Source of the DNA: Eledone cirrhosa
Taxonomy: Eukaryota
DNA length: 64,000 bases
Reading direction: 5' to 3'
Assembly (NCBI GenBank): GCA_964016885.1
Contig: OZ024740.1
Coordinates: forward strand, 130,758,001 to 130,822,000
This document shows positions 4,801-64,000 of this stretch, piece after piece. Positions within the stretch are counted from its first letter, which is position 1. The number at the start of each line of letters is the position of its first letter. Below the pieces are notes generated by a model. That model was not told where the DNA came from and searched no databases. It worked only from the letters and a program-made list of their open reading frames with translations. Made by a program: the position numbers and the translations under genes.

Positions 4801-4809
4801 CAACACCAA

Positions 4810-9226: not shown

Positions 9227-10135
9227 AGAGACGTAAAATAAAAAAAATATTAAAATTTACTTACTTACTAACATTTCACTCTAACTAATTAGTTTCTGAA
9301 ATGGAATAAACAGTTTCCGAAGAAACGTACGTAGAGCCTTTCGTCATCAGGGAAGTCTATTTTCAGCTAAGTTTCCAGGCAATTCGTGGACACAGGGAAC
9401 TTATGCAAAAATAATTCAGTGGATGGAAAAAGCAAAGCGTGGACTAAATTCCAAGCCATTGATTTTATAATTTTCTTCTTTTACGTCTCTCATATTATTG
9501 TTCTGCATGCCCATGTATTGAACCACAAAGTTACTAAGACAAAACCTATATATTTGCTAGCATAAGTATGTATCTGTGTATATATATGTTACTAGATATA
9601 TTAATTCTTTATAATTAACTCCAAATTATTTGTCGAGCAAAAATTGGCCAAAACTGCTACTATAGTAACGGTCCGGCTGCTGTCTTCTTAACAAACCACT
9701 CTTCACTGATTGACCTCGATGTCACGTGACTGATTCTTTTGAATTTGCCACCGACGCAGTAGGCAGTGATTTTTTCAATGGCTTGGAATTTAGTCCACGC
9801 TTTGCTTTTTTCCATCCACTGAATTATTTTGTGTAAGTTCCCTGTGTCCACGTATTGCCTGGAAACTTAGCTGAGAATAGACTTCCTTGATGACGAAAGG
9901 CTTCTCCGTACGTTTCTTCGGAAACTATGTTTATTCCCTTTCAGAAACTATTTAGTTGGAGTGAAATTTTAGTAAGTAAGTTAATTTTATAAATTTCTTA
10001 TTTTGCGTCTCTCATATTATCGTTCTGCATCCCCATGCATTGAACCACAAAATTACTAAAACAAAACTTATATATGTGCTAGCATAAGTATGCATCTGTG
10101 TATATATATATGTTACTAGATATATCAATTCTTTA
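9227..10135 (+). mobile_element. Non-coding PLE-like mini-element (inverted pLTR plus ~520-bp tandem unit)
   Basis: 9227-9462 is the reverse complement of 9776-10012. 9465-9612 is a direct repeat of 9985-10135. HHR-like core in the repeated arm. Flanked by (TA)n. Confidence 0.75.
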
Positions 10136-12012: not shown

Positions 12013-12159
12013 AATTAAAATACTAGAGTGTGTTGGAGTTAAACACCCTCTTCGTATTATAGAAATGACAGTAAAGGTATAGCTCAATGTAATTAAACAG
12101 AGCCGAAGAATTATGAAAATAAACCAAAGAATCCTTCAATACATCAAAAATCTTTATTA

Positions 12160-12197
12160 GCCAACAATGTTTCGTCCTATTAAGGACTCATCAGGGC
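12160..12197 (-). ncRNA. Minimal type I hammerhead ribozyme (canonical core)
   Basis: Minus strand: GCC-CTGATGA-GTCCT taat AGGAC-GAAA-C att G-TT-GGC. Confidence 0.85.
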
Positions 12198-13982
12198 AAT
12201 TAAAGCTATAAGAAGCACTATCGGTCAATACAAGCCAAAAGCTCAGAAGAATATGGAGTGTACATACATTAAAGCATCGGAAAATTATCGAGTAAAAATT
12301 ATCAAGTAAAAATGATCAAGTAATAATTGCTAAGGAAGCGAATAAAATGTTGAACCATATTACAAACATAGTACAATGCAAAAACAAAAGCTAACCAAAG
12401 GTGGTGATATAGAGCGGGAATTATTGTACTATATATAATATAATATAATATAATATAATACAATATAATTGATAATGATAATAATATTAAAAGGCCCAAT
12501 ATACATATATATATATATATATATACATATGTACACATATATACATATATATCAATACACATTTCCAACAATACAAGCACAAACTAACACTTATTAAGAG
12601 TTTAAATAAAAAAAAAAATAATAAGAATAAAAAAAAAAATAAATAAAAAAAAAAAAATAAAAATAAAAAAAATAAATAAAAATAAAAATAAAAATATAAT
12701 ACATATATTATTTACAGTATAAAATGAAGAAGAAATGAGTAAAAGTAAACATATAATATATAATATACTATATAATTATATAATTGATAATCTCCGGTTA
12801 ATTTGCACAAACAATATAAATGTTACAATAACACTATAATAACAATATCACAATACATTGGCATATAACTTAACAAATCATATAGAGTTACAGACAGGGC
12901 GAGAAAAAATATCTTACAGAAATAAACTATGTTGGAAAAATGGTGCTGGAAAAAATATCAATACCATTGCAAGAAAACAGATGGAGGTCAAGTTTCTATA
13001 CAATTGGTGTAAATACATATCCAAACATTACAAAAATAATAAAAATATAAACATATTACAGAATTTACAAAATTTAACATAATGGTACATATAATAATCG
13101 GTAAATAATTAAGATCAATAGTACGTTTACAAAGATTGGAATGATGTAACAATATCAATATCAAATAATGAACATAGTATAATATACATAAATACGTGGT
13201 TGGTGGACAGTAATTTGTGAATAAGTGAATAAGAACCAGACAGAAAACTACGCACGGTAGTATAAATATATAAATAAAATCAACTGGAAATCGAAAAACA
13301 AAAACAAAATAATTTACTTAGGTGTCACATGCAGTTAAGTAAACAAATTAGGAAACAAACCCAGATAAATGACTAGAAAACCCTATTAAATTAATTAATA
13401 TTGAAAGTATTTAAAATACATAATAAGTCAATACAAAATTAGCTATGGTTTAAGTAATCAAAATCTCCAAAGTTTAAGATATCTCAATAAAAATATACAG
13501 AAAAGAATGAAATATTCTACTATCAATTGAATAACGTTATCAAATAAACGGACTTTAAATAGAATTATGGTAGGCCAAAGGGGGCAGAAAAAATAAATGT
13601 ATGGAGGATACGAAGGAGCATAAAATAATAATCAATTTACTGTATTATACAATAGAAAGGAGCATAAAAGGGAATTGAATATAATTATAGTATAATTGAA
13701 GGGGCGAATGACATGTGTGTGTGGGGGGGGGGGTTAATTATCTAAAGAAGAATCCAAATAAAATAAAATAAAATAATATAAAATAAAATATATAATCAGA
13801 TATAAACTCATAAGGTGTTAATAGTGAAAATATAATATTTAAGAAGATAGATATGGTATGGTAGCCAAAAGACTATGAAAGCTAGATTGAAAAGCTGTTA
13901 AAAACCAATAATAATAATGATGATGATTATGATGGTGGTAAACAGAATTAACCTAAACTAAAAAGATAAGGGAATATAGCAG

Positions 13983-15878
13983 CTAATGGATACAATTTAC
14001 ACTACCAGAACCTTTACGTTTATAATAAAAGTAAGAATTTGAAATGGCGTGGGGGCAAGAAGAGAATATCTCACACTTTCTATTAAGTAAGGTTTCCCTA
14101 GAGAAAATTATAGAGTGGGTCTCAAGGATACAGAGATTACAAAATTTTCTATGTGTTGATAGATTATTAGAGCGTGCTACTATTCGCCAATTAAGGCTAT
14201 ATGGTATATTAGCCCCCTTAAGATCCCAGATATGGTGTGCTAAAGAAGTAGAATTCTTAAACTTAACATGTTTAAAATTAGAGATATGAGAATTAAACCT
14301 AGTCTTAAAAGTGTTAGATGTTGAGCCTATATATGTGCTATTAGAGGAATTAGTTTTAACTACACAAGCATAAGCGATGTTCTTAGAGAGGCAATTACCG
14401 TTTAAAGGGCAGTTAACACTCACTCTACACTTACACGTCCGGGTGCTATTGATCGGCTGAAGTAGTGTTGCTCACACGTAGGGTTACTATGAGATAAGGT
14501 CTACTCAGGTGGTAAGACATTTATGGATCTATTCAGATTAGTAGTACGTAGAGAGGAGTATCCATCCCTAATTTTCCCATTGTTAGTGCTAGCTAAATGA
14601 GAACTAATATTAGGGGTGGTAGAGAATGAAAGTTTAATTACATTTTTATTAAAAATACCATGGTATTTATTAGTAGGAGGGAAATGTTTCTCTAAGATAG
14701 AAAAGAAATACCTAGGGATGTTAGTTAATACTTCCTGATTATATGACGGGTTAAAATAAGTATTTAGTCTCCTTCTATTTTTATCCTTACCAACTCTACC
14801 GTTATCTAATATCCCATTATTAAGATTTGGGTTACTACAAGGACTAGTTAAAACCACATTATTAGAATCAGCCGAAACTCCATTAAGTCTCTTTCTGTTT
14901 CTACCTTTAGTATATCTGCTGCTATCTGGAATCATATCAAAAGGATTAGGGCTAATAATAGGATCAGTAGAAACAACACTATTAGAATTAGATTTAGCAA
15001 AAGCATTACCACTGAGTGAGCGCTCAGAGCGCTCGACTTGATTCATAGAACTATTAGATTCCCTATTACGAATCCGGTGGCTTAACTTATGGATGGGTTC
15101 AGATACACCTATGTGATTTCTACGATTCTTATGCATTCTACTCCCATTTATGGCCATATTATGGGATATTATGTTATTATTATTATAAGTAAGCGGATAC
15201 TTTCTAAGGTTACTATGATTATAATGTATTTTACCAGAGTAACCGGAGTTAGCTAGGGCATTATTATAGTACTCTGCATGTGCATCAAATGTTCCTACGT
15301 CCTTAGGGAGTGTAGAAATCCTATTAGATACACCATTAATTATAGGGCTTATCATAGATTTGGGGTGGTTAGAATTGGGACAAACATAAGAGAGTATTTC
15401 ATTAGGCTTATGGAAGGGTTTAAAACTATTAGTGACCAAGTCCAAAGTCACATCTAAAAAGTTGACCGCTCTATCGTTTCTATCTATCGTGATCGAAAGG
15501 TTAAAGCTTTTAAAAAACTTATAAAGCTTCTTCTTATTATGCTCCATGTTGTTGGTGCTAGAGTTAATCACAAACAATGCATCGTCACGATAAAGTCCAC
15601 CTTTAAGGTGCGGACAGGTAACATATAGTTCATTTAGGAGGAACAGCCGAACAAGATCAGTTACCTGGGCCGAATCACTCGAACCCATTGTAACGTCGAA
15701 ATTGTTGGGCGTGTTTTTGCGGGTCCAAAATGTATCCTCAAAATTAATGATAGTTCTACGGGCTGCTAGTATACTATCTACCTGTGATCGTGTAAGGCTG
15801 GACACTCTCATGGCCAACATTAAGGCTTTATTAAGGAAGATGGGTGATATCGATGTGTAATAGGCATCAATATTTTCA
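13983..15878 (-). pseudogene. Naiad-type PLE RT plus GIY-YIG endonuclease (one break near 14460-14500)
   Basis: IDAYYTSI, MGSSDSAQVTDLV, LYRDDAL, VNFLDVTLDL, SNHP, YFNPSY, KHFP...IFNKNVIKLSFS, CKCR...CPLNGNCL, YIGST...FKTRFNSH, LAHHIWDLK, CNLCILE, LNRKCE...CPH. Confidence 0.9.
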
Positions 15879-15959
15879 TAATATATATATATATATAACG
15901 GCGATGAATTAGTTTTGCGAGGTTTTTGATATGAAATAGTGTGTCGAAACAAATATTGT

Positions 15960-16120: not shown

Positions 16121-16157
16121 CAGATACAATATAGACACAAACACATATATATAGTTT

Positions 16158-16198
16158 ATCAAATTCTTTCGTTGCACATCTGCAACATCGTCAGTGGT
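16158..16198 (-). ncRNA. Degenerate hammerhead motif
   Basis: Minus strand: CTGACGA-t-GTTGCA gatg TGCAAC-GAAA. Stems I and III are poor. Related to the 55630 motif. Confidence 0.55.
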
Positions 16199-20141: not shown

Positions 20142-20372
20142 GACGCTGATGAAGGTGATGATGACGATGATGATAATGATAATGATGATGAGGATGGTGA
20201 TTATGCTGATGATCATGATGTGCGACGATGACGAGAATCATGATGATGAGGTCGTTTATGATGTTGCTGATAATTATTAAAAAAACATAATGACGATAAC
20301 TAATGATGGTGATAGCGACGTTGATGCTGAACCTATTGATGATGATGGGGATGATTACGATGATGATGGTGA
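20142..20372. repeat. Imperfect (GAT)n trinucleotide microsatellite
   Basis: Direct inspection. Explains the poly-Met and poly-His pseudo-ORFs. Confidence 0.93.
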
Positions 20373-20734
20373 TCGTGGCGAAAATACGTTTTGACAACTT
20401 TCACGTTCGTGATAACGAACTTACGTAACAGAGCATAGGGAAGATATGAATAATAGAGGTCAATAATTGATAACGTATTAATGAGTCTAACTTGTACAAC
20501 AGTCTATATTATGGATTGTGATATCTTTGATTCGGGTAATTATAATATTGGTGATTAATTATATTATTATCGCAGTTGCATGTTTACTTGAAACTGTTGA
20601 AACGCCAGGAACATCGATGGCCAAAAAACAATTGTAAGAATGAAAAGGCAAAAACAAATATAGACACTCTTGAACTATCGTTGAGGTATCGAGGTGGAAA
20701 TAACGTTTTGGATGAGTTTTGTCGCAACTTTTGA

Positions 20735-20963
20735 GACATTGGATGTATCCTCTTTCTTGCTTATTTCAGTAGATTGTTAACAGTCTAAGCTAGAGACTTG
20801 GCTATGTTTGATTGATTGTGTTTCATATGATAATTATTCCAATTGTTTTTGTCTTCCTTATTATTGAATATATTATCACGGGAAGCATTTGTGAGATTGT
20901 CAAGACATTGTTTCTTCGAATTTGCTTGTAGAAAATGTTTAAATAAATGTTGTGTGTATATGA

Positions 20964-21051
<88 letters not shown>

Positions 21052-21134
21052 GCACACGCACACATACACACACACATACACACACACATACACACATACA
21101 TACACACATACACACACACATACACACACACATG

Positions 21135-21165
<31 letters not shown>

Positions 21166-21370
21166 TAAAATAACAGTTTACAACACTTATTTAAACATTC
21201 TCTACAAGCAAATTCGAAGAAACAATATATTGACAACGTCACAAATGCTTCCTGTGGTAATATATTCAATAATAAAGAAGACAAAAACAATTGGAATAAT
21301 TATCATATGAAACACAATCAATCAAACATAGCTTACTGAAATTAGCAAGAAAGAGAATAGATCCAATGTC
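20735..21370. repeat. Inverted repeat (20735-20953 / 21180-21370) around a (CA)n tract
   Basis: Arms are reverse complements with scattered mismatches. The left arm has an extra ~30 bp. Confidence 0.88.
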
Positions 21371-22900
21371 TGAAAGTCGACTGCCTTCTATCCAAGAAAA
21401 GCCTCTCCAGCAACATTGTCTCCAAATGTGAGGACGAAACACCCACGTCCCGTAGGGCCTATATAGGGTTAACTCCCAATAGATTCAAGCAGCGTCTTTA
21501 TATACACACCCATTCTTTTCTTAACGCTTTAAGAAAGTATATGACGTCACTTTCAGCTTATATCTGGAGTCTAAAAGACAACCACACTCAGTATAGGTTG
21601 CACTGGGAGATCCTAGCTTAGGCTAGGTCGTATAACGGAAATAAAATATCTTGTGATCTTTGCGCCGCTGAAGCCCTGGAAATACTCTACGCCAATGACC
21701 AAATCTTAAACAAAAAATCTGAGGCAATTTCGCCTTGTAAACACAAATTGCATAACACTTTTCTGTATTACAGCCCCGCATTATAGCCTAACGGATAGTA
21801 CGGACATTACGCGGATAATTTACGTCTTGATGTGGTAGCTAACTATATTTTATGTTTATACCATTACTTATTTGTATAGGTACGTATACTTTACCCGTAT
21901 GTTTTGGGTAGTACGTATACTTTTTCGTACGTATATATGCTTGTATTTGTTATAGGTGTATATATTATATTACATATACATATATATGTGTATATCGTTA
22001 TGTATATATGCGTATTTTGGGTTTGTGTGTGTATGCGTGTATGCGCGATGCACGTATGTAAGGTGTGTATAGGTTTACATCGTGTATTCATCGACTTGCG
22101 TTTGGTGAACATATGTATATTTACCTGAAGATAGGTGTATGTGTGCGTTATATACTTATTTATGTGTGTATATGTATATACCTTTATATAATTATATGTA
22201 TATATACACACACACATACATTATTTGTTGGGGGTGATAAAATAAAGTACCAGTAATGCACTGGGTAATTACTGGCCTTGTGCCTAACGTAGAAACTATT
22301 ATTTGTTATGTGTATTTGATTTATACTTTCGTATGTGTGCGGGTACATGTGTAGCGCCTGTTTATATGTACGTCCAATTATACGTATGAATGGCGGGTGC
22401 TTTCGCGTATGCAAGTATATATACGTATTTAGATGCATGTATGTATATAGTTAACTATTATTGATTTTAATAACCACTGTCATTTTCATTCTACTAACTT
22501 ATTTACATTATTCTTAATTCTGAAGCCGCGAATCATTCGGTTTCCTAAATAGTATATTAATCTATGACTTCATTTACACCATAAACGTGGTTTTGTCTTT
22601 GCGTGTAATTGTTCTACGCTCCACATAACGACGTATTATCTTCGCTTTTTTCTGTTCATTGCCAGGGAACGTCTTCAAGAACCAAAGTATTGTCTTCCTA
22701 TATTCCTTCGGTTGCATCGTTTTTCGATATATTTACTTCTGCCTTGGTAGATAGATTTTGTTAGTGTAAGAAGATCCCGTTAATGGTGAAAGCATTGTTA
22801 CTTTAATAAATATTTGCTCTAGGGTTCTTATATATTTGATATATATTTATCCTTATCTAGACCTCTTGGGATTTTAGTCTTCACATTTATCATTATTACT
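21370..22900 (+). mobile_element. Naiad-type PLE 3' fragment 2 (GIY-YIG remnant 21370-21786 plus 3' UTR)
   Basis: Manual translation: AYIGLTPNRFKQRLYIHTHSF...TSLSAYIWSLKD...WEILA*ARSY...CDLCAAEALEI...LNKKSEAISPCKH. Confidence 0.85.
22230..22300 (+). mobile_element. 3' fragment of OR1-like SINE
   Basis: GATAAAATAAAGTACCAGTAATGCACTGGGTAATTACTGGCCTTGTGCCTAACGTAGAAAC matches the tail of the 35512 copy. Confidence 0.85.
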
Positions 22901-22999: not shown

Positions 23000-25008
23000 A
23001 TAACAAATTATCGTTAGAGGTAACCAAGTTAGAGGTTGTAAGTACTCTGTGTCGCAGATTAGTTTTAACGTACGGCTTTGGTTAACTCAACAAGATGTTT
23101 CCATTGTTAGGCACCGAGTTCACGGGAATTCCTATGTAGGTTATACTTGGTGTAATAATAGTGAAATATTGAAGAGTAACATGGTTGGCCATACAACAAG
23201 GGGCTTTATTTTATGTATTAACAATTGTTTCATTGTTCAGGTGAGTCAAGAGGCCACTATTCACTCGAAGTTGCGTCACTCGATCTCCATTACCTTATTT
23301 ACCTCTGATCAAATCCTCAGAATACAAATAATTCATGCATGCCATGATATATATAGAGAAATAGCGTAGAATCAAAACAATAACAGCAATAATAAAATGT
23401 ATGATAAATAGCTTACATATGTAAGTTACATATGTAAAAAGTAAAAAGAAAGAAAAAAGATACACTGAAAAAGTAAGAAAGTGGAAAAAATAATGAAAAA
23501 ATATAAAGAAATAAAGATAGGTGAGAGCATATAAGTACAGAATATGATAGTCGTGGTGGTGAGTAAGTGTCTGTATAAGGATGATGCGGTGAATGTAGAG
23601 CTAACATGTAAAGCCATATTCGAAACATACATAGATACGTGTAGAAAATCTGAGGTAGTAACACATGATAGATAAAAGAAAAAAGCAATAAATTAGAAAT
23701 TAAGTGCGAGATAGTAGTATGAGATCCATGGGCTAAGGGTGGATGGTGAATGGCGACATTTGACCAAGGTGTGTGGTAAATGTTTTGCTGATTGTCTTGT
23801 CTTAATGGGGTTGATGTGGTTTCAGCGAGAGAGGGTGAAAGAGATGTTAAGATATTTATGATCTAGTGACCGGCTGTTTGACAGCTAATAGCGGTGTGAT
23901 GGTATGTATTCCATACGTTAAAATCCAATTGGTTCAGTTCTAATTTTGAGATTTCTGGGTCGAATCATGGGAGTTTGAATCGTGTGACATTGGTAGCTAG
24001 TCTGTTCCTACAGAAAATTGATATTTCTGTTTTTCTGTTAAGCAGCATCTTTTCGTACCTTAAAATATGGAATAGCTCCATATTGCAAAGTCTGCAGTGA
24101 ATAATTTCATTGTTGTAAGCCCTTACTCCCGATAATTTTGGCCAGCTAATCCTATATTACTGGTTTGTGTTTTTAAACTGCCAGAATATATTGGCGAGCG
24201 TTGTAGAATTCTCCAGTATACGGTTCTTCATGGAGCGTCTGTGAACGTATCATCTTTTTTTACCTCCCCAGCCGTGGAAGCTGTGTAGAGCCAAGTAAGG
24301 TTGCCTGAATTTATAGTACACTGGTACACCATACTTGAATCCAGGAATCTATTTTGTAGTGAGCACTTATCCGGTAGGTGGCAGTTACAGTTGGAGGCTT
24401 TTTGTGTGCAGGTACTCCGTTGCGGTTTTGTATGTTGTTATAGGTGGGTTGAGATTTAGGCCTATTAATGTTCTGTTGTGATGCACCCTGATGTGTATGT
24501 GGTTGCTATATTGTTATGTGTTTGCGATTTGTATCTGGTGCTATGGTGTATGTTGGTTGATTATTTTCTTTAGAGATGTTTTTGAGGTTGATTTTATGTA
24601 TGTGTGATCCTACCTCGGCTGCAGTAGAGTGAGATAGTTTGAGAGTTCTTCTATTAAATATTATATGGTATGTGTGTAATTTAGGGAAGTGTTTGTCGAT
24701 TAGCTTAAAGAATGTAGAAGGTAATTTGGTTTTTATAGAGGAGTTGAATATTGGATTGAACCATAAGTATTTCCTATGTCTGGATCATCTATAGTGCCTA
24801 GGGATCCTTATATTAGTGTTCGGTTCAATTACTTTTGGTGCTCGTTGTCTAATTCTATGATTAGTCCAGAGGTAAATAATGTAATGGAGTTCGAGTGACG
24901 CAACTTCGAGGGATTGGCAGCCTCTAGACTCACCTGATCAATGAAACAATTGTTAATACCTAAAATGAAGCCCCTTGTTGTGCAGCCACCATGTTACTCT
25001 TCAATCTT

Positions 25009-25074: not shown

Positions 25075-25678
25075 TATATGAAAAGTGTAATTTACTACAC
25101 AAAACGAAGGTTATAGATAAAATTGAGGTTGGTAATGGCACATGGAATATATAAGAGACAGAATTCTTTTTTGTGAAAAAACATATAATTGTATAAGGTA
25201 AGGAAATAATAAAGGGTATAAAAAATGACCGGTTTCGATGGGTCTGCAAAAGCCATCTTTTCAAATGTTGATTAATATTAAGAAAAATTAATAATAAGAA
25301 GAGTTAAAATTTGAGATTTGAAAATTCAAGTATAGAATTCATTGTGGGATTTCATAGTAGTTTTCATCTTGGTAGCAACTCGTTGACTGCTTCTGGTAGA
25401 GAAGCAGTCAACGAATTGCTACCAAGATGAAAACTACTATGAAATCCCACAATGAATTCTATACTTGAATTTTCAAATCTCAAATTTTAACTCTTCTTAT
25501 TATTAATTTTTCTTAATATTAATCAACATTTGAAAAGATGGCTTTTGCAGACCCATCGAAACCGGTAATTTTTTATACCCTTTATTATTTCCTTACCTTA
25601 TAAAATTATATGTTTTTTCACAAAAAAGTATTCTGTCTCTTATATATTCCACGTGCCATTACCAACCTCAATTTTCTC

Positions 25679-27088: not shown

Positions 27089-27134
27089 AAATAAAATAAT
27101 TAAGTCAGATGTTTAAAATTTGGCATTGTTTATT

Positions 27135-27185
27135 ACTGATATATTTCGGTGACAGCCATCTTTGGCTGTGACCTCTTCAGGCAGT
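27135..27185 (-). ncRNA. Hammerhead motif (canonical core); inverted twin at 30528-30582
   Basis: Minus: ACTGC-CTGAAGA-GGTCACAGCCA aaga TGGCTGTCACC-GAAA-TATATC-AGT. The twin has intact stem I ACTGC/GCAGT but a mutated core. Confidence 0.8.
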
Positions 27186-30791: not shown

Positions 30792-33700
30792 TTTCTAGGT
30801 GATAATAATACATCGTGCGCATATTATTCGTTATCGATCTATGTAGAGTTAGTTACACAATATCAAATAAGGAATATATTAACCTACATGTATATCATCA
30901 GACGTTGTCTGAAGCAATGACAATTTTATTCAAAATCAATATTAAATTGAGGTATATGACCTTATATGGAGGTAGCTGAGGAACAAACCAATCAAATGTT
31001 TTTTTTACCATATGATGTTAAGGTGAAATATAACTCACTTTAGTTGAGGTCATGGCCCTTGAAAGGAATGGTTGAATGGTGTTAAAAATAGAATTACTAT
31101 AAATAACCTATGAAGAAAATGGAATTGATATATTGATAAGGGATTGAGTGAAGTTTAAAAAGGAATGTAAAAATTAAATGTTGAGTATTGGTGTATGGAA
31201 TTTTTAGGTGAATATAAATAAGTAAATATAAAATATACAGACATACCTAGGCTAAATATAGATAGGTAAAGATATGGTCATAAATAGGAAGGATAGTATA
31301 TTAAAAGATGAAAATTATAATAAGATAATAAAATATAATAATATAATAATATAATAAACTGTAATATAATATAGTACAGTATGGTATATTGTATATAGTA
31401 TAATATAGCGCATGATGCATCATAAAATATAAAATAGTAAATATGTTCAAGTGGGTCTATGTATAAGTAATCAAACTCAGATAAATGCATGTTGACATAT
31501 AGTCAAAATGAATAATTTTCTTAGTTCATAAAAGTACATATATTCACATATATAGATAGAAGTACAATTACATAGATACTCCTTTAAAAACATACATACG
31601 CATACGTAGATATAAACATATACAAATACATACATACACGCAAATAAACATATATATGTATATATATATATATATATATCATAAATGATGTCCATATAAT
31701 CATTTGATAAAATGTATACACTATTTCCTTTCCCAATTAGCATAATTAACCACATAAAAAAGCAATTAGACCAGGCTATAAGGATAAAGGCTCCTATGAA
31801 GAAATATTTGATAAATAAACGATGCAGCCTCTTCGCGGCCGACCGCAATAGAATATTTACCCAACATTTCAACAGCATGTAGAAATCGACTAAATATACT
31901 TTCAACCATACACTATTAGGTATACATTTAAAGTTAGAAGAAATTCCTACACTCTTATATATATATACACATATACATACCTATATACATGTACACACAC
32001 ATACATGTACATACACATATACACACAGATACACATATACCCGCATATATATATATACACTTGTATATATATTCTCTTATCATAGATACATAGATACATG
32101 TATACCTATGCAATTACAGGTGGTTATGTACCTTGATTCCCTTAGACAGTAACGCATGAATCTATGGAAGCTAAACAATTAAAAGGTTAACAAATAAAAA
32201 AATCAACAGGAAGGCGTATAATTAGGGGAAGGGGATAATAACAAATTATACGTCACATAGAACTATAGTGAGTTGCTATTTAGAATGTTTAATCAGATTT
32301 ATAGTACTTAAATGTTTTTTCGTATACGGTGATTACAAGCTATAATCAGTCCTGTCTTTTATGCAATAAATCGTCCTTAGATTTAGTAATTTCCAATATC
32401 TCCTCGGAACATAATCTGCATTCTCTCCTGTTCGAAATATATGGAGTTATTTGCAGAATGGTATTTCACGATAGCTAAAATCTACGTTTTGCTGTTTACA
32501 GTTATTTACTGCTTCAGCTAAATATGTGGTGTTAGCTTGTTTAGTATTGTTAAAGCTACTGGAGTGTGCGTAATATATTTTCTTAAATGTGTTCGATGTA
32601 GATCCTATATATGATTTGTTGGAGTCAGTAGTAGACACAGTGCATGTATATATTACATTATTAATCAAACAGTTGCCATTTAATGGGCAAACGCTTCTAT
32701 TTCTGCAATTACAACCATAAGTAAGATGGTTATTGGGGGTAACTACATAATTCTCATTAATCCTTGAGCTATTATTATTGTAATTCATGTTAGAGAGAGA
32801 ATGAGTGATGCTTTGTGGGCGATTTAGTGCTGGGGATGTATTGTGATATTGTGTTATGTTGTTTTTGTGTTGGTGATTTGGGTGGTTGTGTTTTCCAGGT
32901 TGAAGGATTGTATTATTTGTCCTTTTAAATGGTGCGCTCTTATTTAAATTATGTTGTGGTGGTGTGGTCATATTATTTTTAAATTTATAAATGTTGTAGT
33001 TGCATATTCTTTGCTAGAGATTGTTTGATGTAGAGTATGAGAATTTAACAGTATACCTGTTAAATATTTGGAGGTATCTGTGGTTTGGTGGAAAGGGTTT
33101 ATGTAGAATTTCGATGAATTGTTTTGGGATTTGTCCAATAGTTTGCAGGTTGAAGAGTGCGTTGTACTATGTTATGTTTCTTTTGCGGTTTTTAGTTAAG
33201 TTCTTATGTCCACTTATATTAATGTGCTGTGTTCTAGAAGAGTTCTTATGGATAGTGTTTGCATTTGTAGAATTTGGTAAATTGCAGTTGTTGTATTTGG
33301 TGTTATTATTGGGTAGATTATGAGAGGTTGAATGTTTGGTAGTCATATGTGAGTTGTTAACATTGGTCATATATCGTGTAGTAATAGTTGGTTTGGTTTT
33401 TCGATTGTTTGGTGTGATAGGAATGACCCCATTAAGCATTTGTTTCGATGGTATTTTGGGGTATTTGTAGTTTTTGCTAGGTTTATTAGTATGGTCCATA
33501 GTAATGTTGGGATATATGCAATTGTTTATTTATATCCACTTTTAGTTAGGGCTTCGATGTAGAAGGGTGCATTTTTATAAAATATATCCTCATTTGAAGA
33601 TAATTTAGAAAGTCTAAGAGATATGTTATATACTAATTTGTTGAGTATAGAGCCAGGGTGGTTAGAACCTGAATGTACATAGTGTAGATTCAGTTTGGGT

Positions 33701-34496
33701 TTGTGGTAAGGTTGATAATTATTCGTAGAGAGGTCTAAGGTAACGTCAAGGAAGTTAGCTACTTTTGAGGTGATGTTAAGGTTGTAATAGTCATTGAGGA
33801 ATTTTCTAATTTGGTTTTTGTTTTTCTTCATATTAGAATTGCTAAGATTGTTAGATATCAATAGACAATCATTCCGATAAAGACAACCATTCAGTAGATT
33901 TAACAATACTAAACTAGCTAACACACATATTTAGCTGAAGCAGTAAACAAATAGATTTCTAGCTATCGTGGAATACCATTCTACAAAGAACTCCATATCT
34001 TGGGAACAGGAAAGAATGAAGATTATGTTCCGAGGATATCTTGGAAATTACTAAATCTAAGGGCGATTAATTGTATAAAACACAGAAACTGATTATAGCT
34101 TGTAATCATCGTATACGAAAAACATGTAAGTACTATAAACCTAATTAAACATTCTAAACAGCAACTAAATATAGTTCTATGTGGCGTACCATTTGTTAGT
34201 ACCTCTTCCCCTAAGTATACGCCTTCCGGTTTATTTTTTTTTTATTTTTCAACCGTTTAAATTTTGAGCTTCCATAGATTCATGCGTTACTGACTAAGGG
34301 CATCAAGGTTTATAACCACTTGTTATTGCATGTGTATACATGTACCTACGTATGTATGATAAGAGAATATATATATATGTTTATATATATAAATGTGTGT
34401 ATATGTATATGTGCGTGTATATGTATATGTGTATGTACATGTATGTGTGTGTACATGTATATAAGTATAAGTGTGTATATATATATATATATATAT

Positions 34497-34925
34497 AACG
34501 AAGGAAATGTGGTAAAGAACCAGGTGGACCATAACGCACCAAAGTACTCAATACTTAGGGTAGTAGAGTGGGTAATAGGAACAAGACTTACTTACCGCTT
34601 CGACCTCCTCCCCCTCCCCCTCCCCAGTATCTTCTTTGACCTCACACCCAGCTGCAGCTGGCACTACCAACGCATGAATGGGTCTACTCCACCCCCTCTC
34701 CCTTTTTCTCCTACCGGCAGGTTTAGCTACCCCTTCCCCCACCAATTTGCCATCACAGATTTACTACTGACTTGTGATGTGACCAATCCTGGTGATTATC
34801 AGTTTGACCATATATGGAATTACCCCTTGATAAGCTCGGCTATTTAAATACCAGAATAAATTTTCATTCAGTACAGAATTAGCCGTCGAAACGGCTTGAG
34901 CTCAGCCGTCGGGGTCTTACTTGTT

Positions 34926-42570: not shown

Positions 42571-43118
42571 GTGAGATTTTTTTACAAAATAAAAAATAAC
42601 CGAGGTGTCCTACACGAGTGAAAGTATAAAGAAAAAAAGGTGAAATCGAAAATGCAACTGGAGTCTTATTTAAAAAAAAACATATATATTTATTTGGTTC
42701 CTTTATCGGTTTCGCAGTTCTCCTGCTTTTCAAAAGTAGAGTTGAGATGGAAGTCTGTGGTTTTTCTCATGTTATCACCTCTTTATATAATATATATGAA
42801 AAGTGTAATTTTCTACACAAAACGAAGGTTATAGAGAAAATTGAGGTTGGTAATGGCACATGGAATATATAAGAGACAGAATACTTTTTTGTGAAAAAAC
42901 ATAATTTTATAAGGTAAGGAAATAATAAAGGGTATAAAAAATGACCGGTTTCGATGGGTCTGCAAAAGCCATCTTTTCAAATGTTGATTAATATTAAGAA
43001 AAATTAATAATACGAAGAGTTAACATTTGAGATTTGAAAATTCAAGTATAAAATTCATTGTGGGATTTCATAGCAGTTTTCATCTAGGTAGCAACAATAA
43101 TTTTTCTTAATATTAATC

Positions 43119-43166
43119 AACATTTGAAAAGATGGCTTTTGCAGACCCATCGAAACCGGTCATTTT
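43119..43166 (+). ncRNA. Minimal hammerhead with U3:A8 core (7 copies: 25222-25269 -, 25525-25572 +, 42938-42985 -, 43119-43166 +, 48039-48086 +, 53362-53409 -, 55052-55099 +)
   Basis: AACAT-TTGAAAA-GATGG cttttgcagac CCATC-GAAA-CCGG-TC-ATTTT. Palindromic stem III; stem I is weak with one mismatch. Confidence 0.78.
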
Positions 43167-47682: not shown

Positions 47683-48183
47683 GTATATGTATGTATGTGT
47701 GGATGAAGGTATGTGTGTATATATAGGTGTAAGTGCACTAAATCCCTTTCTATCACGCTCCACTCTCCTACCCACCACAAGAAGATATGTGTATGTATAT
47801 TGCTTCCACCCCCTCACTGACCAGCAGCTGGCCAGTTGGCCATTGCTAAATCTGACCTTTATAAAATAACCCACACCCCAAATAACTTCTCATTCACTAC
47901 CAGAAAGGGACACAGCAGTCAACCTGTTGTTGCTACCTAGATGAAAACAGCTATGAAATCCCACAATGAATTTTATACTTGAATTTTCAAATCTCAAATT
48001 TTAACTCTTCGTATTATTAATTTTTCTTAATATTAATCAACATTTGAAAAGATGGCTTTCGCAGACCCATCGAAACCGGTCATTTTTTATACCCTTTATT
48101 ATTTCCTTACCTTATAAAATTATGTTTTTTCACAAAAAAGTATTCTGTCTCTTATATATTCCATGTGCCATTACCAACCTCAA

Positions 48184-53229: not shown

Positions 53230-53777
53230 TAGTGTAATACAAAACGAAGGTTATAGAGAAAATTGAGGTTGGTAATGGCACATGGAATATATAAGAGACA
53301 GAATACTTTTTTGTGAAAAAACATATAATTTTATAAGGTAAGGAAATAATAAAGGGTATGAAAAATGACCGGTTTCGATGGGTCTGCAAAAGCCATCTTT
53401 TCAAATGTTGATTAATATTAAGAAAAATTAATAATACGAAGAGTTAAAATTTGAGATTTGAAAATTCAAGTATAAAATTCATTGTGGGATTTCATAGTAG
53501 TTTTCATCTAGGTAGCAACAACAGGTTGACTGCTGTGTCACTTTCTAGTAGTGAATGAGAAGTTATTTGGGGTGTGGGTTATTTTATAAAGGTCAGATTT
53601 AGCAATGGCCAACTGGCCAGCTGCTGGTCAGTGAGGGGGTGGAAGCAATATACATAAACATATCTTCCTGTGGTGGGTAGGGGAGTGGAGCGTGATAGAA
53701 AGGGATTTAGTGCACTTACACCTATATATACACACATACCTTCATCCACACATACATACATATACATATACATACAC

Positions 53778-53953: not shown

Positions 53954-55205
53954 CCACACATACATACACACACACGCACACACAATACATACATCCACAT
54001 TCACACACATACACACACACACACATATACACATACATACACCCACACACAGAGGAATGGCCTCCAAATATATATATATATACATACATACACATATATT
54101 CTTTCCATAATATAAGAAGTTGGGACAGTGAAATTAAAATACAAGTCATTCTGATCACATTGAGTCCTTCATGTAGATTGGGCCCCGCAACCGACAGTGG
54201 TGAATTCTGTGTGCGCATATATATATAGATATATGTGTGTGCACGTGCAGGGTTTAACATGGATGTGTTGGTCACACAAAGGCATGGTCTGTCAACGAAT
54301 AAACCTGATTCTACAGAATTGGTCTCTGGTCTTTAATAGTAGTGATTCCGTGCGTATGTGTGTTTATATTGTATGACAATTCTATTGGGGTGATAACCCG
54401 TTTAGTTTTGGTTTAAATTTGTTAAGGAATAGATTTTCTTTGTTTATTCTTTGTTGCTGTGTGAACGAATCTGAGCACTTGTAGAAGGGGAAGATTTTAA
54501 AGTTGGGTAGTGTCATTCCTGCGCAGTTCGCAATATGGCTGCTCAAGGGGATTTTTCTTGTGTTAACGTCCCGGATTTGTTGGCGGTGGATGGTCATTCT
54601 TTTGCGTAATGAGGTGCCCGTCTGTCCTATGTAGTTGTGTTTGCACCCACCGCAAGTTATTGCGTAAATCAAGTTCTCCGAGTTGCAGGTGAAATTGTTT
54701 TTTACTGTAAATGTTTGGCCATCTTTGAATGTAAATGTTTGTCCTTCAGTGAGGTAGAGGCACGTTCCACAGTTTGTTCTACCACAGTTGGTAACTGTAG
54801 GGTTGAGGATTGGTTTGGGTATATTTGGTCCAGTGAGAATGCGTTTAAGTGGACATTGCTAAACCTGACCTTTATAAAATAACCCACACCCCAAATAACT
54901 TCTCATTCACTACCAGAAAGGGACACAGCAGTCAACCTGTTGTTGCTACCTAGATGAAAACTACTATGAAATCCCACAATGAATTTTATACTTGAAATTT
55001 CAAATCTCAAATTTTAACTCTTCGTATTATTAATTTTTCTTAATATTAATCAACATTTGAAAAGATGGCTTTTGCAGACCCATCGAAACCGGTCATTTTT
55101 TATACCCTTTATTATTTCCTTACCTTATAAAATTATATGTTTTTTCACAAAAAAGTATTCTGTCTCTTATATATTCCATGTGCCATTACCAACCTCAATT
55201 TTCTC
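53222..55205 (-). mobile_element. 5'-truncated Neptune copy with inverted 3'UTR/pLTR arm
   Basis: 53250-54851 is the reverse complement of 46368-48190. Uninterrupted GIY-YIG frame at 54382-54672. 54853-55205 is an inverted arm. Confidence 0.93.
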
Positions 55206-55629: not shown

Positions 55630-55674
55630 AGTCATAGTTCTTTCGTCACACACTATGTGACCTCTTCAGTGACT
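55630..55674 (-). ncRNA. Type I hammerhead (canonical core)
   Basis: Minus: AGTCA-CTGAAGA-g-GTCACA tagtg TGTGAC-GAAA-G aa C-TA-TGACT. Confidence 0.8.
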
Positions 55675-56412
55675 GGGGATTCCTTTCTGTGTTTATGTGC
55701 CTCTCCTTTATTCTGTCCTACGCCATTTTGTTTCTGTGTGTGTGTTGTGTGCTCAGTCTGCGCATGCGCCACATCCGGGTGCCTGTGTGTGTTTATGTTC
55801 ATTTATTTATTTATTTATTTACATGTTACAAGTTGGTTGTTTGTTCTATGTGTGTGTGTGTTTTCATTTGTCCTTAATTGTAAGTTGTGTTGTTGCTGTT
55901 CCACTCATATTTTCTATTTAATTTTGGTTGTAATTCTTTTATGTTTATTGCCTCTGTAATTTGTCTAAACATTGCGTCTTTTCTGTGTGTAGATTCTATT
56001 TTTATTTCTAGTTCTCTAATTTACCCTTGTGTTCTATCTTAGCATGTTGGTAGAGTACAGATGATTCTTTATACATCTTGAAGGTCTGGCCAGTGTTAAT
56101 TTATCCGTTCCCCTACACTACGAGCTGTCTCACCTATGTACACTATATTTTTGTCTCTACATTGTCCTTCAGTACATCTTATGCTATACACTACATTTCT
56201 AGTTTTACAGTTAATATGGGGTCTTATTTTACAGGTTATACATTTCTTATCTATACATGAGCGTCTTTGAAAAGGGTATGTCTTGCTAATAAGTGTTTTT
56301 ACGGCGGTACCTGGTCTTTCTACTACCTTAATATTGAGTTTATATTTATTTAGGGCCCTTCTAAATTTGTAAGCTAATTCACCTCAAGGGGTTGTATCGA
56401 TGAATATTACAC

Positions 56413-56611
<199 letters not shown>

Positions 56612-56621
56612 AGATATATAC

Positions 56622-56679
<58 letters not shown>

Positions 56680-56711
56680 TGTATGTATATATATATATAT
56701 ATATATATATT

Positions 56712-59700
56712 AGAAGAATCCCCAGTAGGTATTAGTGAGCGTCTTATGTCCATGAGAATTCGGCTGGACAAAGGAAGATATGCGACCCTGGTGAGTATGT
56801 ATGCTCCAACTATGAATTCTGTCGATGAAGAAAATGTGTCCTTTTACCATTCCTTGAAAGGTGTTTTAAGAAATATCCCTCAGGCAGAAAAAGTCATCTT
56901 GCTTGGTGACGTTAATGCTAGAGTGGGTAGGGATTTTAACACATGGAATGTAATCGGAAGGCATGGGGTGGGAAAGTGTAACAACAATGGTATGCTGCTG
57001 CTGCAGATGTGTGAGGAGCTGGATCTGTGTGTTACCAACACCATGTTCCAACAAAAGAACAAATTCAAGACCACATGGATGCATCCTGCATCTAAAGAAT
57101 GGCTTCTTTTGGACTACGTCCTAGTCAGGATGCGTGACAGGCAGGATGTGCAGTGTGTTCGTGCTCTTCGTGGAGCTGATGCTGGACGGACCACCGCCTG
57201 GTACGCGCAAAAGAGAAACTAATCACTAAACGTAAAATCCGGGCTCCTGGTGCTGCCCTGCCCAAAGATTGAATGCTGCTCGTCTCAAGGATAAAAATGT
57301 GAAAAAGACATTGGAAGAAGAGATGCAGGCTGCAGATCTTGGTGAGGATTGGCCGACCCTTAAAAACTCGGTTTATGATGTAGGCAGGCGTTTTCTGGGA
57401 TTCGTCCAGAGAAAACATCAGGACTGGTTTAATGACAATGATGTACATATAGAAGACTTGTTGGCTGATAAGAGGGGTGCTCTGTCACGCTACTTGATGG
57501 CAAAACCACAGGAGAGAAATACGTTACATGATGAACTCAAGGATGTAAAACCCCGTGTTAGGCGAAGTCTTTCTCAGATGAAGGATCAGTGGTGGAGTGA
57601 GAAAGCTGGTGAGATACAAACTGCGTCAGATCCCGATAACACAAATCTGTTGTACAGTCAGTTGCGTGAGGTTTATGGACCGTCTTCTTCTCTGGTGACA
57701 CCGCTCGGCAGTAAGGATGGCAAATAACTTCTTCGTGACTCACAAGTAATTCTACGAAGGAGGCGAGAGCACTTTGATGATCTTTTGAATCAGCCGTCTG
57801 TCGTCAGTGAAGATTTCCTCAATCTCATTCCAGAAAGTCCTGTGAAAGTAGCTCTCGCAGTACCTCCGAAGCTGGTAGAGGTTGCAGTCGCTATTTCGAA
57901 GATGAACAGTGGAAGATCTCCAGGTATGGATGGCATACATGCGGAGCTCCTACAATATGGTGGTGAGAGACTCCTGCAACATCTTCACTCTTTGTTTGGC
58001 AGGATATGGGCTAATGAATCCGTACCTGACGATTGGAGAGATGCAGTAATGGTGGTCTTGTACAATGGAAAAGGTAACAGGAATGATTGTGGGAACTACA
58101 GAGGTATATCATTGCTTTCTTTCGTAGAGAAAGTTTTATGTAGGGTGCTTCTGGACCGTCTGTTGACACACATTGCAGATTGTGTTCTTTCTGAAAGTCA
58201 ATCTGGTTTTCGTGCTGGACGCAGCACTACTGATATGATCTTCTCAGCTAGACAGCTCCAGGAGAAGTGCATGGAACAAAGCTTGGATCTGTATCAGGTT
58301 TTTGTCGATCTGACAAAAGCTTTCCATACTGTTAACAGAAATGCATTATGGAAGCTTCTCCAGAAACTTGGTTGCCCTGATAAGTTCCTTGCTTTAGTTA
58401 GGTCTTTCAATGACGACATGAAAGCTTGGGTTAATGTCGGAGTACATGTCGGAGCCTATCTCAGTAAAAAATGGAGTGAAACAGGGGGATATTCCAGCAC
58501 CGACCCTGTTTGCCATATACTTTGCAATGGTTTTCTGTATTGCATTCAGGAATTACGAGCATGGTGTTTACATCCGATATCGAACCTCAGGCAGCATATT
58601 TAATATCAGGCGCTTTGCTGCGAAGACAAAAGTATTTACATCAGTCATAAGAGACTTCTTGTATGCAGATGATTGCGTTCTTGTAGCGGACACAGAGAGT
58701 GATATGCAGCACATTTTGTATGCATATTCTGACGCTTGCACTGCCCTAGGATTGACTGTCAGTCTCAAGAAAACCGTCGTCATGTACCAACCTTCCCCTG
58801 GTAAGCAGTACACTGAACCAAATATCTATGTGTATGGTAAATGACTTGGAGTGGTTGATCAGTTTGTCTACCTGGGAAACACTGTCAATCGATACGGCAA
58901 CCTTGACAGTGAAATCTCACTTAGGATTAGAAAGCAAGTGATGCTTTCGGAAAGCTAGAAAGGCGACTCTGGGGTCGGCGAGACATATGCAGGAGGACAA
59001 AGGTAAAGGTGTACAGGGCATGTGTGCTCTCTTGTCTTCTTTATGCCTGTGAGACCTGGGTCACATATCGACACCGCCTTAAGCAATTGAAGCGTTTCCA
59101 TCAGTGGTGTCTCAGACGGATCCATGGCGTTCACTGGAGGGACCACATCAGTGATGTCGAGATTTTGGAAAGCTCTATGTGTGACAGTATAGAAGCTCTC
59201 GTGCTTAAGCAACGACTCCGTTGGGGGCGTCACCCTGCCAGGATGAAGGATTCTAGAATACCAAAACAACTCTTTTATGGAGAGATGGTTAAAGGAAAAC
59301 GACTGCCACATAAACCAAAAAAGAGGTATAAGGATTCCTAGAAAGCCTCTATGAAAGACGCTAACATCTCTGCTGATACATGGGAAAATATTGCTGCTGA
59401 TCGTAATAAATGGAGAAAGACTGTGTATGAGGGAAAAGTTGCCTTTGAGGCATCTCGAATCGGATACGAGAAAGTAAAGCGGGATGTGAAGAAGGGCATT
59501 GCTGTTGCACTTCCAGAGCTCGAGGTTCCACCTATGCTGCTGACATGCAGCATCTGTGCGAGACTCTGCCTAAGCAAAGCTGGACTCGAAAGTCATCTTC
59601 GCAGTCATAAAGACCAGTGGTTGACTACCAGGCTGCTGTTGCAGATGCTACTCATCATGCTTGCCAATCATGTGCTAGAGAATGTAAATCAGCAAGAGGG

Positions 59701-60152
59701 CTCAAGCGACATGCAAAAGTACACGAACTCCAACCACAGCCGACTATTCCCAGTGAATGTTTTGGTTGTCGACTCTGTGCAAGCGATTTTAGATCATTGG
59801 CTGGGCTAAAAGCCACATTCGATCGCAGCGCTCTTAGTTGCTATCGTGTGTGTGTATGTGTATAAATATGTTAATGTGTGTGCGTGTGTGTGTATATATA
59901 TGTGTATATGTATATTATTATTGTTGTTGTCGTTATTATTATTGTTGTTATTATTATTATTATTATTATTGTTATTAATGTATATGTGTGTGTGTATATA
60001 TGTATGTGTGTGTATATATGTGAGTGTATGCGTGTGTATATGTATATATATATATATTATTTTTTTATTTTATTTTATTTTTTATTTATTTATTTTTTTT
60101 TTTTTATCTCATCATGCAATGGCCATACTCGATAACGAGGGGGCAGCCATCA
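56712..60152 (+). mobile_element. 5'-truncated RTE-clade (BovB-like) LINE
   Basis: APE C part (YAPT, LLGDVNARVG, TWMHP, LDYV), RT (SPGMDGI, NYRGISLLS, QSGFR, FVDLTKAF, GVKQG, LYADD), C-term LLYACETW, RLRW, RIPKQLFYGE, DRNKWR. 3' hairpin tail at 60119-60152. Confidence 0.93.
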
Positions 60153-60215
60153 TGTATGTATATGTATATGTAAAAAATGTATGTATATATATAGGTATGT
60201 ATGTATATATGTATG

Positions 60216-60250
<35 letters not shown>

Positions 60251-60329
60251 ATATGTATGTATGTATATATATATTTATGTATGAATATATGTATGTATGT
60301 ATGTATGTATATGTATGTATATGTATGTA

Positions 60330-61172
60330 TGTCAGGTCACCAGTTTGTGCTACTGGTAACATGTATCCCAGTACAACCTGTCTCATGGTCGGGTCGTTGG
60401 CGACTAAACTGGCAACCCCACCAAGATTTCTTGGTGAGGAGGGTGACTTTGGACATCCTGCAGGACTAAAAACAAAACCTGTCAAAGGTCAAAGGAGCTC
60501 TTAAGAGTCAATGGCCATCCAAAATCACTGGGAGAGATGATCCGTTAGCCTTTGTCAAGGCAGAATTCTAGGAGAAGGAATATTCTAATATAACACCTGC
60601 AACCCTAATGGTATCCAATGGTGTTGACTTGTACTGTTCTTCTTTATGGTAATTATCATCTTGGTTAAGAGAGTGGGACTGGCTTTGTGCAGTGCCTTTG
60701 CTCACTATAAAAGCTTCACGGCACAGGCATTGCTTTATATCTGGAGATCTCTCTGCACTTGTCGTCACATGGTACCATGGGGCCAGCACTATGTGTCAAT
60801 AATTGTCACAAGTTTAGTGTTTGTACCAGAGTTTTCAAGTCGCTGGCTGGACTAAAAAGTCACACTCGTTCAGCGCATCGGTAAGGGTTCTGCTACATGG
60901 ATATAAAGTAGTGGCTGTACACGAAAACGAGTTGGCAGCCACCATATGTATGTATGTAAGTATATATATATGTATGTGTGTATATGTATGTATATGTATG
61001 TATGTATATATATGTATGTATGTATGTATATATGTTTGTATAGATATATGTATGTATATATATATATTTATGTATATATAGATATGTATGTATATGTATA
61101 TGTATGTATGTGTATGTATGTATATATATATATATGTATGTATATATACATGTATGTATATGTATATGTATG

Positions 61173-62325: not shown

Positions 62326-62379
<54 letters not shown>

Positions 62380-62382
<3 letters not shown>

Positions 62383-64000
62383 TGAAAGAGAACAAAGGAA
62401 CTATTATGACATTATAACAAGTTTATTGCCGACAGCCGTTTCGTCCGACCCCATGGTGGGACTTATCAAGGCATATAACATGTGATTGCAAGATCATTGT
62501 TTACATCAACGTATCACTCAAGACTAGCAGTTTGAATTGTTGTATACATCAGCAACTCCGCTTTAAGGGGGGCTCTTTTATATTAGTTGTCGGGGTCAGG
62601 GATTGAAGTTTAAAAATTAGACAAAAATATATAATTTACGCATCAACATTAAACTAAAAGACATGGGGTCCCGCAGAAGCACCTTAGAAAATCCCTCAAT
62701 GAGTGCATAAAGCTTACAGGCTCCAATAAACCTATTAGTCTAGAAGAAAATTAAGAGGCTAATAAAATAAGAAAATAAAAATATAAAGTTTCCCTAAAAA
62801 ATATATAAAGTTCCTATGAAATTTCTTCTACAGTAAAAAAATTTTTTCCGAAAGAAAAAAACCTTCTTCGCCCGAGATCACGTTTACAAAATTCAGAAAA
62901 CTGAATTGAAAACTAGGTTGAAAGAAACTAAACAATTAGAGGTTAATTCAGAGAGCCTTCCATAAATCTCTCAGAAAAGGCCCCTTTAATATTTCCAATA
63001 GGAACTTCTTCCGAGAGACCCTTCGAAGAATTAAAATTCTAGAGAGCCTTTAAGGATAAATATAAAAACGTATTGAGGAAAATGATACATTAAAAGTTAA
63101 AAATTAAAAATGACGGTATTTGGGATATCCGAGGAATTTTCAAAGGGCTGCTTCAACAGATACAACTTAGGCATAATAGATACAATAATCTAAGCAATTT
63201 AAGTAATTTAATTAGGGAGCAATTCAAGGAGTTTATCAAGTTGGGCAAGATTAAAGAAAGTGGTAACTAAGAAAATACATAAGCAAAAAGACAATAATCA
63301 TAAAATGTATCTTTAAGAAGGTATAAGGCAGCTTCAGTGATCTAACCATGTATTATCACAAAAAAACATTCTAAAATTATTGATACAGGATTAAAAATTA
63401 TTACAAAATGATTACAAAATTACCACAAAATCATTACAAAATTATCAAATCATCACTAAATTACCACAAAATCATTACAAAATTATCAAATTATCATAAC
63501 ATTATCGCAAAATTATTACAAAATTATCATAAAATTATTACAAAAATATAACAGGATGAATTGCTTAGATTATTGTATCTATTATGCCTAAGTTGTATCT
63601 GTTGAAGCAGCACTTTGAAAATTCCTCGGATATCCCAAATACCGTAATTTTTAATTTTTAACTTTTAATGTATAATTTTCCTCAATTCGTTTTTATATTT
63701 ATCCTTAAAGGCTCTCTAAAATTTTAATTCTTCGAAGGGCCTCTCGGAAGAAGTTCCTATTGGAAATATTAAAGGGGCCTTTTCTGAGAGATTTATGGAA
63801 GGCTCTCTGAATTAACCTCTAATTGATTAGTTTCTTTCAACCTAGTTTTCAATTCAGTTTTCTGAATTTTGTAAACGTGATCTCGGGCGAAGAAGGTTTT
63901 TTTCTTTCGGAAAATTTTTTTTTTCTCTAGAAGAAATTTCATAGGAACTTTATATATTTTTTAGGGAAACTTTATATTTTTATTTTCTTATTTTATTAGC
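62380..64000 (-). mobile_element. PLE terminal region with inverted arm (62757-63195 / 63563-64000), runs off the window
   Basis: Long inverted repeat, terminal HHR and (TA)n flank. The spacer contains an ~11-bp AAAATTATCAC-like minisatellite at 63385-63545. Confidence 0.8.
62427..62473 (-). ncRNA. Type I hammerhead with U3:A8 core
   Basis: Minus: TGCC-TTGATAA-GTCC caccatggggtc GGAC-GAAA-C ggct G-TC-GGCA. Confidence 0.85.

Follow-up and report, generated by a model that had tools for sequence, protein, structure and literature searches.

The hammerhead core in which a U3:A8 pair replaces C3:G8 is already published, for natural hammerheads in 2011 (PMC3088659) and for Penelope-like elements (PLEs) in 2014 (PMC4209133). 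In the account of Perreault et al., U3 and A8 covary in natural hammerhead cores, and in vitro activity of such variants had been demonstrated before (Perreault et al. 2011, PMC3088659). For PLEs, Cervera and de la Pena report that minimal hammerheads show poor activity as monomers and weak activity as dimers, and that the Cercyon PLEs of Schistosoma mansoni carry a U3-A8 variant of the minimal hammerhead with about 1,300 matches (Cervera and de la Pena 2014, PMC4209133). The Hydra clade of PLEs is described as having a C-terminal GIY-YIG endonuclease (EN), a CxCX5C linker, a hard-to-align RT motif B, insertion into (TA)n, and canonical hammerheads (Craig et al. 2021, PMC8557442).

We analysed a 64,000-nucleotide stretch of the Eledone cirrhosa genome (contig OZ024740.1, positions 130,758,001 to 130,822,000; hereafter the window). 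We consider it probable that the motif at 62427..62473 on its minus strand is a minimal type-I hammerhead with a compensated U3:A8 core, that it lies in the pseudo-LTR (pLTR) and 3′ end of a young, probable Hydra-clade PLE, and that it would cleave itself after GUC, most likely as a dimer. The minus strand from 62473 to 62427 reads TGCC-TTGATAA-GTCCcaccatggggtcGGAC-GAAA-CGGCTG-TC-GGCA, so that the U3:A8 motif with intact stems noted in the first-pass annotation is confirmed letter by letter as well as by the reversed controls given below. U3:A8 stands in place of C3:G8, a Watson–Crick pair being kept (U-A versus the consensus C-G), and the remaining core bases are intact: U4, G5, A6, N7 and A9, G12, A13 and A14, the A15.1-U16.1 pair, and H17 are all present (TGAT.A, GAA, A..T, and C17). 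Helix I is open and has 4 bp (TGCC/GGCA); helix II has 4+3 bp, a 12-nt insert extending GTCC/GGAC; and helix III grows from 2 bp in the monomer to 8 bp in the dimer. Cleavage is predicted after GTC and before GGCA from core letters that match the consensus save at positions 3 and 8 and from a two-copy cofold.

The motif is real, chance being excluded by three reversed-sequence controls: a strict descriptor, which demands at least 4 bp each in helices I and II, GAAA, a paired 15.2-16.2, and UH, is matched twice in the window, by the focal motif and one other, and 0 times in the reversed window; a 35-letter pattern left free (N) at positions 3 and 8 matches the genome at 217 sites versus 0 for the reversed pattern; and a wider pattern, covering both the family that carries the focal motif (F4) and its relative F15, has 402 genome matches versus 0 in the control. 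Rfam at gathering thresholds gives 0 matches across the window. Over 101 bases of the focal site, the whole of the model RF00163 (Hammerhead_1) can be aligned, but the 19.0 bits obtained (E 0.016) fall short of the gathering score of 34, and the canonical motif at 12156-12200 reaches 29.1 bits on the same model; because this canonical motif is likewise under 34, the Rfam cut-off fails to split real from unreal minimal motifs here. The focal motif resembles RF00163 over the whole model, with a helix II (GUCCCA..GGAC) and a GAAAC that equal the model consensus, but it loses score through U3, A8, and its 4-bp helix I.

Folding favors the dimer: the monomer attains the hammerhead fold at −11.6 kcal/mol versus −13.2 kcal/mol for its lowest-energy fold (z-score −0.69), whereas two copies cofold at −37.7 kcal/mol versus 2 x −13.2 for monomers and adopt a classical double hammerhead, whose helix III, ACGGCUGU, has 8 bp including two G-U pairs. 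This cofold agrees with the dimer proposal made for PLE minimal hammerheads, and the focal motif is like those in its helix III (1-2 bp), in a palindromic loop that suggests dimers, and in occurring as many scattered single motifs and inverted pairs (PMC4209133). It resembles the Cercyon motifs of the same report in being type-I and located in the pLTR, in its short helix I, and in having U3-A8 for C3-G8; compared with Cercyon as described there, F4 lives in another host and belongs to another PLE clade (probable Hydra, (TA)n-targeting), it has a C3:G8 sister family, and its RT/EN tree points to a swap within the lineage as well as to recurrence. The compensated core pair is identical to that of Perreault et al. 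(PMC3088659), whose account, in the part that bears on this pair, concerns other organisms and other hammerhead types and proceeds without a retroelement phylogeny. Mechanistically, the U-A pair would still hold residue 8 in its active-site position, and cleavage would thus be retained.

F4 is a young and abundant Penelope-like retroelement family of hundreds to >1000 copies. The 241 bases around the focal motif yield 1003 first-look candidates in the 3.0-Gb genome, the 40 of these 1003 that were scored being 98-100% identical, and T3 and A8 are carried by all 100 matches listed of the 217 found with the 35-letter pattern. The focal motif lies ~50 nt from the 3′ end of a 5′-truncated F4 copy of ~1.19 kb at 62376..63560 (−), which consists of 3′UTR, hammerhead, and a tail ending CACTAATAT, is 94-98% identical to other copies over oriented positions 561-1745, and adjoins at its 3′ end a (TA)n microsatellite at 62329..62379, the insertion target. 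Head to head with it stands an inverted partner copy with its own hammerhead at 63559..64000 (+), which extends beyond the window to 64383; the two arms (62376-63199 and 63559-64383) are 98.2% complementary over 825 nt, and such minus-then-plus F4 pairs recur genome-wide at many spacings. F4 3′ ends fall either at CACTAATAT or 153 nt beyond it, and a TA repeat follows in 29 of 30 loci. The fullest layout was seen at one locus (L122): (TA)n, a 293-nt inverted copy, a 633-nt pLTR with a hammerhead, a 725-aa ORF and a 171-aa EN frame, a 2.4-kb 3′UTR, a second hammerhead, the tail, and (TA)n. The tandem unit measures 5578 nt, and the extra 153 nt of the “long” 3′ end are where the following unit begins. 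F4 insertions into (TA)n take the form of head-to-head inverted pairs and of partial tandems. In a run at window 62380-62700 labelled with a second organism code lie 55% of the stretch's sampled words, and the F4 family may therefore be common to another species.

Where F4 copies stand in partial tandem, cleavage after GUC by the upstream pLTR motif would trim the 5′ end of the transcript. F4 copies retain ~50 nt (short form) or ~200 nt on the 3′ side of the cleavage site, which indicates that the RNA that was copied had not been cut at the 3′ hammerhead and counts against a role of the motif in 3′-end formation.

The F4 element is probably of the Hydra-clade type, an assignment made by comparison with the described features of that clade. 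F4 is like that clade (PMC8557442) in its C-terminal GIY-YIG, its CxCX5C linker, its divergent RT motif B, its (TA)n, its hammerhead, and a pLTR with an inverted truncated copy; it differs in its unit of 5.6 kb with a 2.4-kb 3′UTR, where the clade is given as “generally <3 kb”, and in N-terminal motifs that read RWR and DKA versus RWK and DKT. Matches of the EN frame to Pfam GIY-YIG score 18.9 and 20.9 bits, just below the cut-off of 22.6 (E 1.9e-3 and 4.6e-4), and GIY-YIG is always C-terminal, also in the homologues P0001 and P0004. Of the 17 related EN rows that span the linker region ahead of the EN, 13 have the linker (CNCRKKDKC in F4), and (TA)n marks the 3′ end of other window families besides F4. 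Pfam RVT_1 makes no call on the RT-like ORFs among the window proteins; the RT assignment relies on motifs recognised by eye, together with Atlas neighbours that carry HTH_animal/RVT_1 and longer homologues in which GIY-YIG is C-terminal, the search for these homologues having returned only 4 proteins, 2 of them chimeric gene models. In two F4 loci (L122:2318-4947 and L032:2775-4672) and in a related element of the window (13983-15958, −), the EN frame is −1 relative to the RT ORF, the RT/EN overlap in L122 being 58 nt; F15 has the C-terminal piece of its RT in frame with the EN. Programmed frameshifting, a small intron, or a defect common to these elements could account for the −1 offset.

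The closest F4 relative found is F15 (loci L090 and L114), whose EN is 54% and whose RT C-terminus is 67% identical to F4. Its hammerhead, tatgcT-CTGATGA-GTCCCAC..GGAC-GAAA-CACTG-TC-Agca, has a C3:G8 core and lies ~2.2 kb past the EN and ~70 nt ahead of (TA)n. Between F4 and F15 elements the coding DNA alone is alignable (~70%) and the 3′UTR is not; within that unalignable 3′UTR the motif forms a conserved island, where flanks, spacing, helix I, and the start of helix II persist and the core differs at positions 3 and 8 alone. Two pairs differ: pair 2.1-1.1 of helix I, next to the core, is C-G in F4 and T-A in F15; and pair 3-8 is U-A in F4 and C-G in F15. Compensatory changes in the helices are thus found, in a comparison of only two or three homologous families, and a conserved island with two compensated differences in an unalignable 3′UTR points to selection on a working fold and to a compensated swap. 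A third, related family (F1) bears a canonical C3:G8 hammerhead at 12159..12198 (−) with the GCC/GGC of helix I and the GTCC/GGAC of helix II as in the focal motif, and its RT-like (485 aa) and GIY-YIG EN (162 aa) ORFs at 13983..15958 (−) are 47% identical to the F4 proteins. The comparison supports a U3:A8 core in F4 that would be compensated and not a product of decay. In the F4 lineage, U3:A8 would have replaced C3:G8 in two steps, each a GC-to-AT transition, probably with a U3-G8 wobble as the intermediate; in a genome of 30-40% GC, two changes of this type are compatible with an AT-bias driver but do not demonstrate one.

The first 100 listed of the 402 matches to the wider pattern show how the two cores are distributed: 73 are U3A8, all with the F4 loop in helix II; 26 are C3G8, all with the F15 loop; 1 is C3A8, with the F4 loop; and none is U3G8.

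A reading in which the motif is a tolerated relic, transposition proceeding without ribozyme cleavage and U3:A8 reflecting relaxed constraint rather than a working core, strikes us as unlikely. It can draw on the low in vitro activity of minimal hammerheads (PMC4209133), on the F4 copies that keep sequence 3′ of the cut site, and on the Naiad PLEs, which are described as thriving at high copy number without canonical hammerheads (PMC8557442), an abundance that suggests the motif may be dispensable for transposition. It can also draw on several Hydra-type ENs of this genome (E3, E4, and E5 types) for which hammerhead descriptors detected no canonical motif between the EN and the terminal (TA)n: elements at 23990-24800 (−), 20000-21800 (+), and 32400-33900 (−) in the window, and others at L032 and in the C3 100.05-100.065 Mb stretch. 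Yet relaxed constraint sits poorly with a core (save 3 and 8), a helix I, and a helix II base that F4 and F15 keep amid an unalignable 3′UTR; both of the F4/F15 differences that touch a pair are compensated; and uncompensated cores were seen in no family, C3A8 and U3G8 occurring only as single decayed copies.

F4 is one of several U3:A8 families. The first-pass annotation had counted three distinct U3:A8 termini in the window, and three are indeed there: the focal motif; the motif at 34821-34916 (+); and a family (F3) with the arrangement TTGAAAA-GATGG..CCATC-GAAA-CCGG-TC in 7 copies. The second of these (F5; 34821..34916, +) has a 54-nt helix II region and a long helix III, CGGCTTGAGCTCAGCCG, and belongs to an RT/EN lineage unlike that of F4: the F5 motif is tied to its own RT/EN in three other loci, 1167-1245 nt past the EN, two of these three RT/EN loci having inverted F5 partners. 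The RT/EN adjacent to the window motif (33879-32474, −) was considered as part of one element with it and ruled out, as its EN alignment is that of a different family. F3 is a 223-nt non-coding unit with a TTGAAAA core, represented at 43120..43165 (+) and, in further copies, at 25223-25268 (−), 25526-25571 (+), 42939-42984 (−), 48040-48085 (+), 53363-53408 (−), and 55053-55098 (+); the seven copies lie within 30 kb (window 25223-55098), most of them in head-to-head pairs. The genome holds at least 599 F3 candidates, yet 600 kb of arbitrary sequence from other regions contains no F3 copy. An EN beside one F3 copy (L090) was rejected as the F3 coding partner, its 3′ end bearing the F15 motif. 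The fourth U3:A8 family, F9, is retrozyme-like with a 320-nt tandem unit, and a diverged relative of it retains U3A8 while helices II and III covary. Animal non-LTR retrozymes were reportedly described by Cervera and de la Pena in 2020. F3 and F9 look like such non-coding riders as these are presented by Li et al. (2026, bioRxiv 10.64898/2026.07.22.740005); the focal motif differs in lying in a protein-coding element, which is not a retrozyme.

Canonical motifs accompany these families. At least five C3:G8 families had been proposed for the window, and this count is confirmed: C3:G8 motifs stand at 12159-12198 (−), 55630-55674 (−), ~27130-27185 (−), 16148-16198 (−), 39622 (−)/41617 (+)/37392 (−), and 62199 (−). 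TTGATGA is present at 9887 (+) with a CTGATGA partner at 9350 (−); the two belong to an inverted pair (9305-9354, −, and 9883-9935, +) with CTGATGA/TTGATGA, CGAA..TTCG, and GAAA, and without helix I. The window also contains two non-LTR (LINE-type) elements, one at 3437-7819 (+) in a stretch of 53% GC with Exo_endo_phos and RVT_1, and one at 56373-60469 (+) with RVT_1.

Whether the U3:A8 families share a coding ancestry was judged on the proteins. By tblastn, the window and random stretches alike contain numerous related RT/EN fragments, which are 35-57% identical. Each EN was paired with the first hammerhead downstream of it and ahead of the terminal (TA)n, and where an internal (TA)n left adjacency doubtful, the continuity of the element was checked across copies: in F1 loci L058-L071 and F5 loci L072-L085, an internal (TA)n lies ~500 nt ahead of the 3′ end, and since homology runs through it across copies, adjacency to a TA run is no reliable element boundary. 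Five of the C3G8 EN-hammerhead pairings rest on one locus each. The RT+EN tree was built under LG+G4 from a query-anchored alignment of 19 elements with 340 kept columns, its rows being single, partly decayed copies of which 7 of 19 are under half filled. On this tree F4 (U3A8) clusters with F15 and F1, both C3G8, with support of 90/88, whereas the F5 clade (U3:A8, 100/98) lies elsewhere and adjoins an element without a detected motif, so that core type requires at least two changes. Forcing F4 and the F5 clade together, a U3:A8 group fixed after the first tree was seen, was rejected by the AU test (dlnL 59.5, p-AU 0.00015), and again under a mixture model in a quick search (dlnL 53.9, p-AU 0.00057).

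With core type mapped onto the RT+EN phylogeny, U3:A8 appears in separate lineages, and the recurrent core swap suggested in the first-pass annotation gains support, from two U3:A8 coding lineages that stand apart on the tree and from the AU rejection. The kinship that the annotation suspected with the motif at 34822 finds no such backing, the shared GAAACGGCT being the only likeness and F5 being phylogenetically distant. That all U3:A8 hammerheads of this genome come from one ancestral ribozyme of a single PLE subclade, vertically or by template switching, is very improbable: the GAGCTC loop in helix III common to F5 and F9 suggests that some U3:A8 families may be related, and inverted and tandem copies show template switching by the PLE RT, which makes transfer of a motif between elements conceivable, but the AU rejection of a joint U3:A8 group makes a single ancestral subclade fail as the sole explanation, and the flanks, spacing, and helix II start of the F4 motif match those of the C3:G8 families F15 and F1, not those of F5. 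F5 likely made the U3:A8 swap independently of F4, and the swap likely arose at least twice within this one genome.

A tight descriptor applied to 664 kb, made up of the window and six arbitrary 100-kb stretches, gives 74 matches versus 10 in the reversed sequence: 48 C3G8 (reversed, 0), 14 U3A8 (2), 1 C3A8 (0), 1 U3G8 (0), and 10 with other cores (8); a separate pattern adds three more F5-type U3A8 motifs. Outside the window there are 43 C3G8 and 6 U3A8 matches, of which 3 are credible, and two added F5-type motifs bring the credible U3A8 to 5; the window is enriched in U3A8 mainly because of the seven F3 copies. A U3A8 frequency equal to the product of the single-mutant frequencies does not fit these counts, in which doubles are much commoner, and singles much rarer, than that product would give. 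As hammerhead copies share descent, the fair count is by family, and by our own grouping of the 664-kb scan there are ~17-20 C3G8 families, four U3A8 families (F3, F4, F5, and F9), and none that is uncompensated. An intact-looking motif with a 7-bp helix I has only two exact-pattern genome matches, G000:C3:100068343 (L121) and G000:C3:35459112 (L120), one with C3-A8 and the other with U3-G8; each core is one transition from CTGACGA, as expected from decay of a CTGACGA motif.

What is new here is the contrast between the sister lineages F4 and F15, together with the statistical rejection of a single U3A8 clade. We lean towards, with moderate confidence, a wider interpretation: Hydra-type PLEs of one genome would have changed from C3:G8 to U3:A8 on at least two independent occasions; the new core would also have spread to the retrozyme-like riders F3 and F9; no family would have become fixed in an uncompensated state; and the whole would constitute a natural series of drift of an active-site pair under GC-to-AT pressure with pairing selected. 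Searches that demand CUGANGA or rely on the Rfam threshold miss a sizeable share of the hammerheads here, given 14 U3A8 versus 48 C3G8 motifs, plus the 3 of F5 type, in 664 kb. F4 and F15 offer matched natural constructs for cleavage assays; and F4 with U3:A8 beside F15 with C3:G8, together with an unrelated second U3:A8 lineage, suggests that selection acts on the 3-8 pair in retroelement hammerheads, the function of which is debated.
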